A DNA stretch of 28,012 nucleotides. Source: a candidate division WOR-3 bacterium. GTDB lineage: Bacteria > Hydrothermota > Tepidihabitantia > SM23-42 > JAOAFX01. Where the stretch lies: assembly GCA_039802265.1 (NCBI GenBank), contig JBDRWI010000029.1:1-28012 (forward strand), in the 5' to 3' direction. Shown one piece after another: positions 12,001 to 21,000 of the stretch. Position 1 is the first letter of the stretch; each line of letters opens with the position of its first letter. The position numbers were made by a program.

Positions 12001-15000
12001 AAGCGTGAAGAGTCTAAATACGATGTCTTCAATACCGGACATTCCTCTACTTCCCTCTCCGCAGCCTGTGGCCTTGCTATTGCAAGAGATTTTACTGGCG
12101 CCGATTATCACATCATATCTGTAATTGGTGATGGCTCACTGGGCGCGGGTATGGCCTTTGAGGCATTGAATCATATCGGTCAATTAAAGAAAGATGTAAT
12201 CGTCGTGCTCAATGACAATGAACGGTCCATCGGCGAAACCGTGGGTGCACTATCCCAATATCTTACCAAGATAATCACCACCCGCAGTTACAATAGATTA
12301 AGGGACGACCTCTGGGTATTTTTAGGCCGGTTTCCCCCTTATATAAGGGACCGCGCGAGGAATGTAGCGAAGAGAATACAGGAGGCATTAAAGGGTTTTG
12401 TTTCACCCGCAGTGATATTTGAAGAACTCGGTTTTCGTTATATCGGTCCACTTGATGGGCACAAAATCAAGGACTTGATTGTGACCTTCTCAAGGGTTAA
12501 GGAGATGCGTGGACCAAGGATTGTGCATGTAGTCACAAAAAAGGGAAAAGGTTATAAGTATGCAGAAGAACACCCGGAACGTTTTCACGGTATCGGACCT
12601 TATAACCCGCAAACCGGCACGGAGAATAAGAAGACAACATCCTTCACCGATGTCTTCGGTGAAGCAATTGTTAATATTGCCAGAGAAAACAAAAAAATTG
12701 TAGCAATTACCGCGGGTATGTGTCTGGGAACAGGATTGAAGAAATTTTCCAAAGAATATCCAGAAAGATTCTTTGATGTGGGAATCTGTGAACAGCATGC
12801 AGTAACGATGGCCGCGGGCCTTGCCCTTGAAGGATTCATCCCGGTCTGTGCAATATATTCTACATTCCTCCAACGTGCCTATGATCAGATAATCCACGAT
12901 GTCTGTCTGCAGAAATTACCGGTCATCTTTGCCATTGACCGGGCTGGTCTGGTTGGTGAGGATGGACCAACCCACCATGGTCCATTTGATGTCTCCTACC
13001 TGCAGTGTATCCCCAATATTATCGTCGCTTCTCCCAAGGATGGAGAAGAACTGATTTCCCTTCTTAAGACCGCAATAAATTATCGGGGTGGTCCTTTTGC
13101 CATTCGCTACCCTAAGGCAGCCTGTCCGGAAGTCCGGAATCCTGACCCCGGTGAGATTAAAATCGGTGAATGGGAAATCCTGCAAGAGGGAAAAGACATT
13201 GCAATCCTCGCCACGGGCTCAATGGTGGCACCGGCGCTTGGGGCAGTTGAAATATTAAATAAGAAAAATATTAACCCGATTCTGATAAATGCGCGTTTTA
13301 TTAAACCCCTTGATACCACCCTGCTGAAGATAATCAAAGACAAGGTAAAAAAGGTCTTCACCATTGAAGAAAATTCCACGGTCGGTGGTTTTGGCTCTGC
13401 GGTGCTTGATTTCTTTGCCCCATTTCATAAAGAGATATCAGTTGAGATAATCGGTCTGCCGGACCGATTTATTGAGCACGGTTCAAGGGAAGAACTATTA
13501 AAAATCTGTGGACTTGACTCAGAAGGGATTGTGAATAGAATTATGACAAAATCATGACTCTTTTAATTATCGTATTCTTGTTGGGTCAATTTACTGCGCC
13601 CTATGAAACTCGGGTTTTTGTTGACTATGATGGAAACTATATTGTGTATGCCCGATTTTACCAGGGAACACTGGTAAGTATTGATAGTGTAATCCCGATG
13701 CCCCATTATTTAAAGACCAGCCTCCACCGTCGTAACAAGATGATGCTAATCGGTGAATTGAAAAAGGAATTGGTCAAACATAGCGGCTATGCCGCAAAAG
13801 GAATCTTTGGAACATTTGAAATACCCCTGCCCAAAGGGGGATTCAGTGACTTCATGGGTGAAACTGGAAAACTTGATGTGGGTGGTTATGTGAAGATAAC
13901 ATTGGGTGGTGGTAAGACATTTATGACCAATCTACCCGGGCAGGCTGGAATGTCCCTCTGGCCCGAATTACAGATGGAACAGGAAATGGCAGTAAATCTT
14001 GATGGTCAGGTCGGTGACCGGATGCGGGTATTCATCGACCATAATTCAACAAGAATCAATGAGACTGAAAATAAAGTCCGTATCACCTATAAGGGAAAGG
14101 AAGACGAAATTATTCAGGAGATTGAAGGTGGCGATACCCAGCTATCAATCCCACCGACGACTTATACCGGCGATATTCCATCCCATCAGGGGCTTTTTGG
14201 TATAAAGTCTACCTCACGATTTGGTCCCCTGGAAATAACCGCCATCGCCTCCCGGGAACAGACCCAGACTGAAGAGATGGAAATAACCGGCACTTCATCA
14301 TTGACTACCGATTCAATATTCTCAAAGGACTATGAAAAAAGGAGATTCTTCTGGCTCGGAACCCTTGATTCAATCATTGAATTGAAGGTCTTTGTCTACG
14401 ACGAAAACCAGGGAAACAACAGCAACAACATCACCCGTTATGGAAACGCCATCCTTGATGCCAATGACAATAACATTCCTGATGATACGACAAAGACCGT
14501 CTCGGGTTATTTCACCCTAAGAGACGAAGGGCTTGACCGCGATTATACATTTATACCAAAGGTAAACATAATTGAAATGAAGCAGGGAATACAGTTGTAT
14601 TATGAGGCATTGGGTGTTTATTATCGCAAGATTGATAGTCAGGGTAATGAAGATACGGTGGGACTCCTTCCGGCCGGGCAGGATACAATCCAGTTGAAGC
14701 TCATCTGTCCGAAAAATTATCCGGATACATCATCAATCCTCTGGGCTTACGAGTTGAAGAATTATTATCAGATAACAGTTCCCGGGGGTAATCTTGATTC
14801 CGTGCAGATTTACTATATGAATCCCAGCGGAATTAACGACTACAAGGATACCCAGGGAAGGACTTATCTTAATCTTCTGGGACTTGATGAGAATAAAGAT
14901 GGTGTTGTCGACCAGTATCTCGGCTTTGGTGATGGTGGATTTGACCGCTATCGTGGCCTTTTGATCTTTCCGGAGCCGATGCCATTTACCAATTCCACTC

Positions 15001-18000: not shown

Positions 18001-21000
18001 ACTCACTGCTGATTCCGGGTTCCCCATTATGGATTGTCAAACAGATTGAAATCTTTGTCGATTATCTCCAGAATCCAACCATGAGTTTTTCCCGGCAGCG
18101 AGGGTCCGGTTATTATACTACAGTCCGACCGCAAATCAAATACCAGTGGGGATTGATTGACACTATTCCCCATACCGAAATTGCCCCCAATAGTTATTCA
18201 TCCCGCAGTGTCACTGATAACTACAATCTAAACTCCGGAATTAGAATAAAACTGGTTAGCCTCAATGGTGGTTATGGTTACCAGTTAACAAGAAGCTTTG
18301 CCTTGAGTGGAAATGAAAATCGTACGGTTTCCTATACCTATCCCAATTTGGACCTCAGAATCTCACAGATTGAGGCATTGCCAATTTTGAAAAAATATAC
18401 CCGTTCTTCCAGTATCAATTCCAATTTTAATCAGAATTATCAGCGGCAATACACGGTTGTCCCCGATACCATTCCGGAATTGACCGCCGCTTCTCATTCA
18501 TTTACTTTCAACCCAATTTTGGGCTGGCAGGCAAACTGGTTAAAGGGCATTACCACAAATACCACAGTAAACTACAGTCAGACTGATAATGCCCAGTATG
18601 TTAGCAACTATATCAATCCAACACGGTCGGTAAGCAGGGGTGGAACCTTCTCAATCGGATACACCTTCAGTGCACCCAGGGGACTTAGCCTTCCCTTTTT
18701 ACATGGAATCAAATTTACCTCCAATCTCACCACGAGCCTGAACCTGAGTTACACCCGTAATACAAACTATGCTGCCTCACAGCATAATCCAAATGTTCTG
18801 GACCTGGAAAATCCAATCAGTGACGGAGAATCATCAACATTTGGAATCTCGCTCGATTATAATTTCTCCTCCAGTATTACCGGAGGTGCAAATTTTAATT
18901 ACACATCAAACAAAGACCGAATCTCATATATCAATGACTCAAAAAGGGTGGATTTGAGTATATGGTTGAATATAAACTTTTAAAAATAGGAAAACAGGTA
19001 ATAACAAAGGCTTTTAAGAAATATCAAAACATAATTATGGTGTTTTGTTCTTTTTGTTCTATGTGTTTATCCGCCGACCTTTACGATTATTTTAAAGAAT
19101 TCTGCCAAATCGGCGAAAGGTCACCCAATACCCCGGGGCACAGATTAGCCCGGGATTATATAATCAACCATCTTGATAACCCGGAAATAGATTCCTTCTT
19201 CCAGGAAGGAATCTGGTTCTATAATATTTACAAAAAATTCTCCGGGACCGGCGAACTCATCGGTATCGCTGCCCACTGGGATTCAGATATTAATTGTCCC
19301 GGGGCAAATGATGGTGGTTCTGGTGTAAGTATCCTCTTAAAGCTTGCCGATACCCTCAAAAAGAATCCCCCCCGTCTGCGCGTGCATCTATTGTTCTTCG
19401 ATGGTGAGGACTTAAGACAGGCAGAACTTGTTGGCTCAAACCACTTTGCAGCAAAATGTCTTGAGCGCTATTCATTTATTCTAGTTATTGATATGGTTGG
19501 CGACCGGGACTTGCAGATTTACCAAGAAGGACACTCAGTAAAATTCTTCCCTCAGCTTGTTGATTCAATATGGCGGATTGGAATGAATATGGCACCCAAT
19601 GTCTTCTTTCCTTCGGTAAAGTACTACATTATTGATGACCATATTGCCTTGCTCAAATATGGCATTCCCGCAATAGATATCATTGACTTTGACTATCCAT
19701 ACTGGGATACTAAAGATGATACAATTGATAAATGTAGTAACGAGAGCCTGAAGATAGTATACCAATTTTTGCTTAATATCGTTTATGAAAAGGGAGAATA
19801 TTAAAATGAAACCGAAAAAAGAATTCATTGTCCTTTTAGTTCTATTAGTAGTTCTTGCTGGAATTAACCTATTGGCTTATATTCAGTATACAAATCAACA
19901 AAAGGGAATAGAATTGATAGTGAAAGAGGGCACAAAGCCAATTTCAATTAACAATGCCGAGGTAGATGATTTAGAAGCACTTCCGGGTATTGGTCCTGCC
20001 CTGGCCCGGCGTATCGTTGAATATCGCGCCCGTCATGGTGCATTTAAGGATTTAGATGAACTGAAAGATGTAAAGGGAATAGGTGAAAAGGTATTCAGGC
20101 AAATCTTGCCCTTTATTGAATTGTAGGTGCCTATGAGACTCGTCACAAATCAAGAGATGAAAGAAATTGATACCTGGGCTCAGAATTTCCTTGGTATCCC
20201 GGGGATTGTATTGATGGAAAATGCCGGACGCGGATGTGTGGAGGTATTGAAGAGATATTTCAAATTGAATGACTTGAATGTCCTTATCATCTGTGGTCCT
20301 GGTAACAATGGCGGTGATGGAATGGTAATTGCCCGTCATCTAAAAAATCAGGGAAGTAATGTCTCTGTCCTTCTTCTATGTCGGGCCGAGCAATTGAAGG
20401 GCGATGCCCTCTTAAATTATACAATCTTAAAAAAATCAAAAATTAAAGTCCTGGAGGTTAATTCCGTATTAAAGTTGACTGAGGTATTTGCCTCTTTTCC
20501 CGCGGATTGCATTGTTGATGCAATCTTCGGCACCGGATTTAAGGGCAAACCAGCTGGAATTTACAAAAAGGCAATAGAATTGATAAACCACTCAGAAAAA
20601 TTTGTGCTTTCTGTAGACATCCCATCTGGAATAAATGGTGATACCGGCGATTTTGAAGAAATTTGCGTTGTTGCAGATGCCACCGTAACGATGTGCCTGC
20701 CTAAAAGGGGAATCTACCTCTTCCCCGGTCGTGCCTCCTGTGGTAGCGTCTATGTTGTAGACATTGGTGTGCCGCTTGATTTAATAAATCATGGTTATCC
20801 TTGGGTCATTGAATATGAGGATATTTTCAACCTGCTTCCTTATCGTCCCCCGGATGGGAATAAAGGAACATTCGGCCAGGTTCTTATCATAGCCGGGGCA
20901 AGAGGGTTTTCGGGCGCGGCAGCAATGGGAGCAATCGCCGCCCTTAAAGTTGGAGCGGGACTTGTGCGCCTTGCTGCACCAAATAGCATTATCAATCCCC

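Follow-up and report, generated by a model that had tools for sequence, protein, structure and literature searches.

A type IX secretion translocon without a detectable GldKLMN chain in candidate division WOR-3, and a TonB-type unit as its candidate energiser

Introduction

What empties a type IX secretion (T9SS) translocon if the motor chain is missing? In the current model, as set out in sections of PMC12635249, T9SS export requires the GldLM motor together with a GldKN track that moves, and an origin of the T9SS inside the gliding machinery is inferred. The question is raised by a sprA/sov gene in the genome of a candidate division WOR-3 bacterium (G000). The gene lies in a 28,012-nt stretch of contig JBDRWI010000029.1, which we refer to as the window. 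An earlier note on this DNA had identified it as SprA/Sov, and had proposed that the genome carries a large set of T9SS cargo proteins without GldKLMN. To our knowledge, no WOR-3 bacterium has been cultured. A literature search, mostly of open-access papers without supplements, returned no paper containing both 'type IX secretion' and 'WOR-3', and no description of a motor-less T9SS. The accessible part of the T9GPred paper does not mention other phyla. Here we followed the translocon, its cargo and its possible energy source across 151 genomes of the WOR-3 phylum.

Results

The sprA locus

The ORF at 13554..18983 (plus strand) encodes a protein of 1809 aa, and its assignment to sprA/sov, the T9SS outer-membrane translocon, was borne out. 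The protein scores 330.2 bits on TIGR04189 (cut-off 200), also matches PF14349, and aligns with Flavobacterium johnsoniae SprA (PDB 6H3I) in four collinear stretches (E 4e-23). Its N-terminus is signal-peptide-like and its C-terminal residue is Phe. Its nearest named homologues are from WOR-3. Upstream in the same run, annotation searches identified the housekeeping genes ispA and dxs (10824..13557, plus strand), which are not T9SS parts; this neighbourhood is also seen in G094 and G024. Downstream, domain matches identified an M28 peptidase and a ComEA-like gene (18962..20126, plus strand), and ComEA often adjoins sprA in WOR-3. No motor gene was found beside sprA in the window. One raw RNA run placed 0 reads on the stretch, which was covered by a run that is probably of DNA.

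Two further features of the window are related to the T9SS or to Ton. A type A CTD cargo protein of 349 aa is encoded at 1741..2790 (minus strand); it scores 22.1 bits on TIGR04183 (cut-off 23) and matches our own CTD profile with E 1.8e-16. A TonB-dependent receptor with a Plug domain is located at the contig end (25893..27980, minus strand). The receptor of the conserved Ton-receptor-cargo-PorV operon, on C34, is its paralogue (34% identity, E 1e-81).

Translocon, carriers and sortase

SprA matches were found in 148 of the 151 phylum genomes, 137 of them over cut-off, which extends the 45 of 48 order genomes reported earlier. PorU is present in 143 of 151 genomes at E<=1e-60 and is over cut-off in 67. 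It was not found in the G000 bin, which is 89% complete; the earlier remark that this bin lacks it and relatives carry it holds. The count of nine PorV/PorQ-family proteins was too low: 10 ORFs in G000 are over the NF033709 cut-off and 15 are found in all. The best of them, PorV proper (C86), scores 125 bits against the PorV equivalog cut-off of 250 but matches PDB PorV, and its orthologue adjoins porU in 4 of 12 loci. Some barrels of the family are fused to OmpA, TPR or Ig domains.

A compact SprE/PorW-like lipoprotein of about 410 aa is found in 132 of 151 genomes, nearly always in one copy. In HHalign comparisons with two Bacteroidia SprE sequences, it is collinear with SprE (99.7%, E 4e-26) and lacks only the finger and C-terminal regions; a control TPR family reached 91.8% and E 7e-7. 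On NF052312 (cut-off 250) it scores 84 bits, and a generic TPR protein scores 87.5. The solved SprE is only 27th among the PDB matches of its profile. F. johnsoniae can do without the finger and C-terminal regions of SprE, according to parts of PMC10994853. OmpA domains are fused to the SprE-like proteins in three of three tested. Such cell-wall anchors, here and on the PorV barrels, suggest parts under load, for which they would be expected. Each of three WOR-3 genomes searched contains one Skp over cut-off, adjoining bamA in two of them. WOR-3 Skp carries a conserved extra C-terminal domain of about 150 aa with a weak DUF3280/DUF2380 match. SprA, PorU, PorV and the SprE-like protein are co-retained across 36 families.

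Tail-bearing cargo

Our own C-terminal profile detected 198 cargo proteins in G000 at E<1e-5 and 202 at 1e-3, with no reversed decoys. The 198 proteins make up 19.4% of the 704,863 coded residues. The earlier note had given 150 cargo proteins and 14% of coding capacity. The large cargo set stands and both figures rise: TIGR04183 had been scored on 150 of 217 candidates, all 150 of them over cut-off, so that 150 is a lower bound. Lys is found at position -6 in 135 of 175 complete cargo proteins. By a crude proxy, a signal-peptide-like start is present in 139 of these 175, compared to 608 of 1521 other G000 proteins. Eight of the 15 PorV-family genes are located directly behind a cargo gene.

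Search for the motor

The earlier statement that GldL, GldM and GldN are not detectable now applies to the whole phylum. GldL_N and GldM each matched 0 of 151 genomes; the GldL control matched 20 of 21 Bacteroidia-type genomes. GldN, searched with PF19841 and no genome-level positive control, was over cut-off in 0 of 151, its single match (E 0.008) falling below cut-off. The FGE fold of GldK went undetected in 102 of 151 genomes, the one-contig G132 among them. The FGE domain, reported missing before, is indeed absent from G000, but it is present in all six same-family genomes. Since five of six FGE loci in the family and order adjoin a gene that in G000 lies at the end of a contig, the absence in G000 is probably an assembly gap.

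The concern, also raised earlier, that divergent homologues escape HMMs is real for the curated GldM and GldN models. Cyclonatronum contains a divergent gldLMNK operon in which neither GldM (380 aa) nor GldN has a Pfam match and GldL scores at the cut-off; a divergent short-form chain is present in Cyclonatronum/Balneolales. An HMM-only absence test is therefore weaker than it looked. The FGE fold still detects the divergent Cyclonatronum GldK at 7e-43. Motor absence was re-tested in five of the 151 genomes, G000 and the near-closed G132, G094, G024 and G006, with broader profiles that detect divergent GldM, and nothing was found. Our canonical GldM profile recovers all of 30 short GldMs (E<=8e-5), yet the best G000 match with any GldM profile has E 0.045. 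The broadened GldM alignment, run without a positive control of its own, returned nothing in the other four genomes. Around FGE genes, no L/M/N-like gene better than E 0.02 was found in 20 loci, in a test that recovered the Cyclonatronum control. G000 contains no gene pair with the GldL/GldM membrane topology.

On our own GldK profile, the short FGE proteins from the family and order of G000 reach 129-142 bits, compared to 149 for divergent GldK. The GldL insertion does not discriminate between them. Because divergent GldK also lacks it, absence counts and neighbours were used for GldK instead. Among five genomes, PorP was over cut-off only in the Chitinophagaceae control, and our own PorP/SprF profile was negative in G000. 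A one-sequence search for PorG in G000 alone, a weak test, gave a best E of 0.65. These searches support a WOR-3 T9SS with translocon, carriers, sortase and a large cargo set in which no GldKLMN is detectable.

A single-copy Ton unit as candidate energiser

The best candidate energiser is an ExbB-ExbD-ExbD-TonB unit. Its ExbB orthologue is found in 141 of 151 genomes, in single copy outside G000, and is the sole ExbB/TolQ/MotA-family gene in G006, G083 and G007. In 11 of 20 loci the unit is followed by receptor, cargo and PorV genes, and in 12 of 20 a plugged receptor is located within the same 20-kb region. On C34 all parts (ExbB, ExbD, TonB and plugged receptor) have Pfam matches. Eight of the 20 loci have small, uncharacterised membrane proteins encoded ahead of exbB.

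The TonB-dependent receptor is equally widespread (141 of 151) and has a TonB-box-like segment, a motif read by eye. It is an obvious ordinary client of the Ton unit, which counts against coupling to the T9SS. The Ton genes and sprA do not share an operon, and only G006, G020 and G026 have the two within about 25 kb of each other. A search of literature listings returned no report linking TonB to T9SS energisation.

Other candidates were rejected or set aside. An eight-gene cargo-PorV(Ig)-TPR-ExbB-ExbD-ExbD-TonB-OmpA operon is present in two pieces in G000 (C84, C26) and whole in G024, G067, G123, G091, G046 and G052. It is missing from the SprA-bearing genomes G132 (one contig), G017, G006, G083 and G007, which argues against a general motor, and its giant TPR protein resembles SprE only generically. 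A DUF6754 membrane cluster is upstream of exbB in some loci only and is commonest in Bacillota and Planctomycetota.

Spread of the motor-less state

GldL was found in 0 of 11 SprA holders of the Ignavibacteria/Kapabacteria/Rhodothermia type, so that, judged by profile searches, WOR-3 is not alone in being motor-less. McBride and Zhu reportedly noted in 2013 that gld genes are missing from R. marinus and S. ruber. In a midpoint-rooted SprA tree, WOR-3 forms one clade (0.957). The GldL-bearing Bacteroidia are nested among lineages in which GldL was not found, the motor check covering lineages other than TA06, Cloacimonadota, Zixibacteria and Latescibacterota.

Discussion

Our analysis suggests that WOR-3 bacteria very probably run a working translocon without the Gld motor. 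We propose, tentatively, an outer-membrane-only T9SS driven by the Ton unit; with the Ton coupling included, the chance that the whole statement is right falls somewhat short of even. Cargo would cross the inner membrane by Sec, fold in the periplasm and enter the SprA barrel. The type A tail would bind to a carrier of the PorV family that sits laterally in SprA. Carrier and cargo would then exit SprA sideways together, and PorU would cut the tail and anchor the cargo. Dedicated cargo may remain on its own PorV-family barrel, and OmpA domains would tie some barrels to the cell wall. The compact SprE-like lipoprotein and Skp are the probable remaining components on the periplasmic side of the translocon. 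Release, a step that requires energy in Flavobacterium, would most likely draw on the only proton motor universal in the phylum, the single-copy ExbB-ExbD-ExbD-TonB.

The main rival needs no dedicated motor. The carrier-cargo pair would diffuse out of SprA, biased by PorU cleavage and anchoring or by cargo folding and surface capture, and the Gld chain would later have sped up or taken over the step. We consider this rather unlikely. It agrees with the shorter SprA of WOR-3, with the lack of any linked membrane motor gene at the sprA, porU and SprE-like loci read, and with PorG and PorP/SprF not being found. Substrate loading needs no energy according to the part of PMC10994853 consulted, and the C-terminal region of SprE, which the WOR-3 protein lacks together with the finger, is there reported to contact the Hub in Porphyromonas gingivalis. 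However, the same source describes that without the motor F. johnsoniae substrates stay trapped on the translocon. About a fifth of the G000 proteome would have to pass the pore passively, and the cell-wall anchors that PorV and SprE-like proteins carry hint at load. An undescribed, unrelated energiser, such as an inner-membrane complex not yet characterised or a protein that partners the extra Skp domain, is unlikely. The conservation of that domain and the small membrane proteins ahead of exbB would fit it, but both candidates examined, the eight-gene operon and the DUF6754 clusters, fail.

That GldKLMN is present but too divergent for sequence profiles is quite improbable. The Cyclonatronum-type operon demonstrates that such divergence exists, the short FGE proteins score near divergent GldK, and the broadened profiles cover the five genomes named above. 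On the other side are the sensitivity of the GldM profile to short GldMs with no comparable match in G000, the empty broadened alignment in four genomes, the many genomes in which the FGE fold was not found, the FGE loci without L/M/N neighbours, and the missing topology pair in G000. We regard it as very improbable that SprA and the tails serve no secretion pathway, the barrel having another job and the tails being periplasmic Ig domains. Similar Ig domains, there probably periplasmic, do occur behind one PorV barrel and in an OmpA-like protein. But SprA, PorU, PorV and the SprE-like protein are retained jointly, and the tails are C-terminal with a conserved Lys on proteins enriched in signal-peptide-like starts. 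Tails also appear cleaved in Fibrobacter succinogenes, as reported in part of PMC6851124, and R. marinus Xyn10A is cell-attached, judging from a title cited in PMC6539836.

Compared to the F. johnsoniae Extended Translocon (SprA, PorV, SprE, SkpA; PDB 6H3I, 8GL8; described in parts of PMC10994853), WOR-3 SprA is collinear along its length, with an N-terminal domain alignable to Bacteroidia SprA, and is about 600 aa shorter. WOR-3 likewise has PorV, an SprE-like lipoprotein, Skp, PorU and type A tails. Its SprE-like protein is the compact form, sometimes OmpA-fused; a single Skp, carrying an extra domain, takes the place of two or three; and GldLM, GldKN, PorG and PorP/SprF were not found. The energy chain (GldLM/PorLM, GldKN/PorKN, PorG, SprF; sections of PMC12635249) serves the same step at the translocon, in which carrier and cargo are released. 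It is present in Bacteroidia and, in divergent short form, in Cyclonatronum/Balneolales, whereas it was not found in the 151 WOR-3 genomes. Type A tails with evidence of cleavage or cell attachment are described outside Bacteroidia for F. succinogenes (PMC6851124) and Rhodothermus/Roseithermus (PMC6539836); the available portions of both papers take a normal T9SS for granted and leave a missing motor unmentioned. In type B cargo with PorP/SprF shuttles (PMC12618676), a cargo gene is likewise followed by its own carrier barrel, but the WOR-3 pairs combine type A tails with barrels of the PorV/PorQ family, some of which carry fused domains.

The Ton unit has established relatives in ExbB-ExbD-TonB uptake motors and SusCD-like pairs of receptor and surface protein. 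They share the 5:2-type proton motor, TonB and the plugged receptor. Unlike in SusCD-like pairs, the WOR-3 surface partner is a tail-bearing T9SS cargo protein that comes with a dedicated PorV-family barrel; the unit itself occurs in single copy almost throughout the phylum.

The distribution also bears on evolution. Outer-membrane-only export probably predates the GldLM motor. The motor, the GldKN track, PorG and PorP/SprF would most likely be later additions, made near the Rhodothermia-Bacteroidia split. This pattern argues against the published view of a T9SS evolving from the gliding track. A bolder, somewhat unlikely extension is that the ancestral T9SS in WOR-3 and most deep FCB lineages was an SprA-SprE-Skp-PorV translocon with a TonB-type proton motor, that GldLM and its track replaced this motor late, near that split, and that gliding grew from secretion.

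Tools that demand GldKLMN report the T9SS as confined to Bacteroidetes, as stated in part of PMC4793230, and therefore miss many surface proteomes. Since Ignavibacteria- and Rhodothermia-type genomes share the motor-less state, the question can be tested in harmless cultured thermophiles. The WOR-3 pattern separates the core T9SS parts, SprA, PorV, PorU and probably a minimal SprE and Skp, from add-ons. With cargo at about a fifth of coded residues and no Gld chain detected, it points to secretion before gliding and to an alternative mechanism for clearing the translocon. If the Ton coupling is true, the Ton system would drive protein export as well as import.

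SprA and its surroundings

The sprA gene (13554-18983, + strand) encodes a protein of 1809 aa. Its score of 330 bits on TIGR04189 (cut-off 200) agrees with the earlier note, which had placed it over the cut-off. Four collinear stretches (residues 139-1250) align with the 2403-aa F. johnsoniae SprA (E 4e-23). The nearest named homologues are from candidate division WOR-3, and farther ones are labelled TA06, Latescibacterota, Cloacimonadota and Zixibacteria. Within a phylum set of 151 genomes from 36 families, 134 of them with completeness of at least 90%, SprA is matched in 148 and is over the cut-off in 137; it is phylum-wide. 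The neighbors of sprA in the genome under study (G000; 89.3% complete, 110 contigs) are the housekeeping genes ispA, dxs, an M28 peptidase gene and comEA. No motor gene adjoins sprA among the WOR-3 loci listed.

Other genes in the window include hdrCBA-like heterodisulfide reductase genes (3790-7257, - strand), whose HdrA carries a fused MvhD-like domain. Ahead of tatC lies a gene for a WD40-like secreted protein of 493 aa (21693-23174, + strand). A 448-aa secreted protein with a C-terminal Phe and no family match is encoded behind a TonB-dependent receptor (24130-25476, - strand).

Search for the motor and ring in WOR-3

GldL_N and GldM are each matched in 0 of the 151 WOR-3 genomes; GldN has one match, which is below the cut-off. 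The claim that the GldLM motor and GldKN ring are undetectable thus extends to the whole phylum. As controls, GldL_N was searched in 32 named SprA holders from 80 loci. It is present in 20 of 21 Bacteroidia-type holders, the exception being a 1.9-Mb bin, and in none of the 11 Ignavibacteria-, Kapabacteria- and Rhodothermia-type holders. GldM was matched only in the Chitinophagaceae genome among five genomes. In the phylum of the Kapabacteria genome, 49 of 201 genomes are over the GldL_N cut-off, and their regular spacing among the genomes suggests that they form one class.

A Cyclonatronum-type genome (G204) has a GldL score just under the cut-off and holds a divergent gldL-gldM-gldN-gldK operon (L300:2830-7662, contig C186). 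Its GldM, only 380 aa long, is related to named proteins from Cyclonatronum and Balneolales; this short family comprises about a dozen 50%-clusters. Pfam recognizes neither GldM nor GldN of this operon, which indicates that a real motor can escape curated models. We know of no description of this short operon, which may be the earliest form of the motor.

The motor was therefore searched for again with our own profiles. A canonical GldM profile of 16 sequences, run without filters, recovers 30 of 30 short GldM-like proteins (E<=8e-5). On 8,206 ORFs of G000 it found nothing better than E 0.26, and a broadened profile reached E 0.045 at best. The broadened alignment, run without an internal control, found nothing in the one-contig genome G132, in G094, G024 and G006, or in the Kapabacteria genome. 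GldK and GldN profiles gave nothing better than E 0.86 on G000, and GldL profiles matched nothing but coiled coils lying away from the membrane region (best E 2e-4). A topology rule that catches 17 of 18 GldL and 15 of 16 GldM found no adjacent GldL/GldM-like gene pair in G000.

GldK is built on the FGE fold (PMC12421860), and the FGE model PF03781 picks up even the divergent GldK of G204. It has no match in 102 of the 151 WOR-3 genomes, including G132. By score alone, the other WOR-3 FGE proteins cannot be told apart from the divergent GldK. At 20 WOR-3 FGE loci, no L, M or N neighbor better than E 0.02 was found, and the control operon was recovered. PorP/SprF is over the cut-off in the control genome only, and PorG reached E 0.65 at best in G000, a weak test. 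The motor-less observation is solid and phylum-wide.

Cargo and the outer membrane

A TIGR04183 search of G000 gave at least 150 matches. The 150 tail proteins counted earlier are a lower bound, since only 150 of 217 candidates were scored. An iterated profile, built on the last 110 residues of the 1,936 called proteins (704,863 aa), finds 198 cargo proteins at E<1e-5; a threshold of E<1e-3 raises this to 202, so that cargo makes up 19.4-19.6% of residues. Reversed tails used as decoys gave no matches. Lys lies six residues from the end in 135 of the 175 cargo proteins with a complete 5' end. A hydrophobic start, a crude proxy, is found in 139 of these 175, compared to 608 of 1,521 other proteins. 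The gingipain-like peptidase C25 set is a large expansion, with 24 of 26 matches over the cut-off, spread over many contigs.

PorU was not found in the G000 bin (89.3% complete), as noted before, yet 143 of the 151 genomes have a match at E<=1e-60, 67 of them over the cut-off. The number of PorV/PorQ-family proteins in G000 is revised from nine to 15 ORFs, of which 10 are over the cut-off. The gene on contig C86 is PorV proper: its protein matches PorV in the PDB, and its orthologue comes after porU in 4 of 12 loci. A cargo gene directly precedes 8 of the 15. Five barrels are fused to other domains, two to OmpA, two to TPR repeats and one to a FlgD-Ig domain (L036:7692-9206, L038:2893-4629, L037:5515-7422, L039:1778-3628 and L035:3966-5312).

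A 410-aa TPR lipoprotein (C56:5432-6928) is the top match (E 1e-24; next-best E 1e-7) of an SprE profile built from two sequences. Of the 151 genomes, 132 have a match to it, in almost all cases a single copy. Profile-profile alignment with SprE covers residues 86-620 (99.7%, E 4e-26; control TPR family E 7e-7). The one long gap is at the finger region; the finger and C-terminal tail of SprE are dispensable in F. johnsoniae (PMC10994853). However, on NF052312 the lipoprotein reaches only 84 bits of the 250 required, and its PDB search lists SprE in 27th place. From these comparisons it is likely, not proven, to be SprE. Eight of 30 copies (L314, L316, L317 and five more of L301-L330) carry a long C-terminal extension; the three tested all have an OmpA peptidoglycan-binding domain at the C-terminus. 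Look-alike clusters in Fidelibacterota, Eisenbacteria, Fermentibacterota and Fibrobacterota are a lead only.

One Skp, extended by an additional C-terminal domain, is over the cut-off in each of three WOR-3 genomes. The G000 gene adjoins bamA (L286:1606-2544, contig C19). The fused domain is conserved and about 150 aa long; it weakly matches DUF3280/DUF2380, and we read it as CsgG/TolB-N-like. Judged by sequence, the WOR-3 system appears to work like type IX at the outer membrane, but without motor and ring features.

What could power release

G000 has three full ExbB-family genes and a TolQ gene truncated at a contig end beside Pal. One ExbB set is part of an eight-gene operon on contig C26. 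This operon is not a general motor, because it is missing from G132, G017, G006, G083 and G007. The set on C34 and C63 consists of the Ton unit (ExbB-ExbD-ExbD-TonB), a lipoprotein, a receptor, a cargo protein and a PorV-family barrel. Its ExbB has an orthologue in 141 of 151 genomes, single in each of the 140 others. By hand count, it is the lone ExbB-like match in 27 of the 29 genomes with only one. Of 20 loci, all carry TonB downstream of exbB, 12 the receptor and 11 the PorV barrel; G083 keeps the receptor-cargo-PorV triple elsewhere in its genome. A family search confirmed the C34/C63-type ExbB as the only ExbB/TolQ/MotA-family member in G006, G083 and G007 (loci L078-L081, L084 and L100-L102, from G006, G020, G083 and G007). 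These three genomes therefore apparently lack a Tol-Pal motor, although outer-membrane genes are present.

The operon and its upstream membrane genes are doubled in G000 (L033 and L034; ExbB 87% and receptor 77% identical), either by recent duplication or through mixed strains. The genes upstream of exbB encode a DUF6754 protein, three uncharacterized membrane proteins, a DUF4388 protein and two small proteins of three helices each (L033:1187-7645, L290:2177-5206). A further copy of the DUF6754 block is found on C11. Separately, C9:36137-38179 encodes a probable lipoprotein of 680 aa whose last part is a TonB C-terminal domain.

In F. johnsoniae, cargo loading is energy-free and carrier-cargo exit needs energy (PMC10994853); PorG on a moving track is proposed to push the pair out (PMC12635249). 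In almost all WOR-3 genomes with SprA, the Ton unit is the only known proton motor able to reach the outer membrane, and is thus first choice by elimination: carrier-cargo release would be powered by it. The case is thin because the receptor is equally widespread (141 of 151) and by itself accounts for the Ton motor. We hold Ton coupling as a tentative reading, with somewhat less than an even chance.

Release could instead be passive, as loading is energy-free in F. johnsoniae; the energy needed for exit there speaks against this, and we consider it doubtful. An unknown motor is unlikely. A GldKLMN motor hidden from curated models, as in G204, is distinctly improbable beside the profile searches, and a system with no secretion is very hard to credit.

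Evolution and precedents

A SprA tree (FastTree, 47 proteins, 1,523 columns, midpoint root, partial-SprA loci excluded) places WOR-3 in one group (0.957), near TA06, Cloacimonadota and Zixibacteria. GldL-bearing Bacteroidia form a single clade (1.0) whose sister group is Rhodothermia (0.997); Ignavibacteria and Kapabacteria fall outside both. The tree fits vertical descent along the species tree. Within the part of the tree that was screened for the motor, GldL was not found in WOR-3, Ignavibacteria and Kapabacteria; on this basis, one motor gain near Rhodothermia plus Bacteroidia would be more economical than repeated loss.

McBride and Zhu 2013 reportedly describe R. marinus and S. ruber as being without gld genes, and Veith et al. 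2013 are said to show tail processing in R. marinus. Both species are classed as tail-positive (PMC5053529), and Xyn10A of R. marinus is attached to the cell (PMC6539836). F. succinogenes has tails and apparent cleavage (PMC6851124). Because of the reports on these three species, the motor-less state was foreshadowed, and the pattern is common to lineages for which it was already partly noted. TXSScan detected T9SS in Bacteroidetes alone, in 60 of 97 (PMC4793230). Reviews assign T9SS to the FCB superphylum, with missing motors undiscussed in the sections consulted (PMC11205867). Literature searches turned up no account of a T9SS that lacks its motor, and for WOR-3 none at all, though one could exist in subscription papers or supplements.

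T9SS has been proposed to have first evolved within the gliding machinery (PMC12635249). One late motor gain would run against this proposal. The motor-less observation in WOR-3 bears on both the energization and the origin of T9SS.
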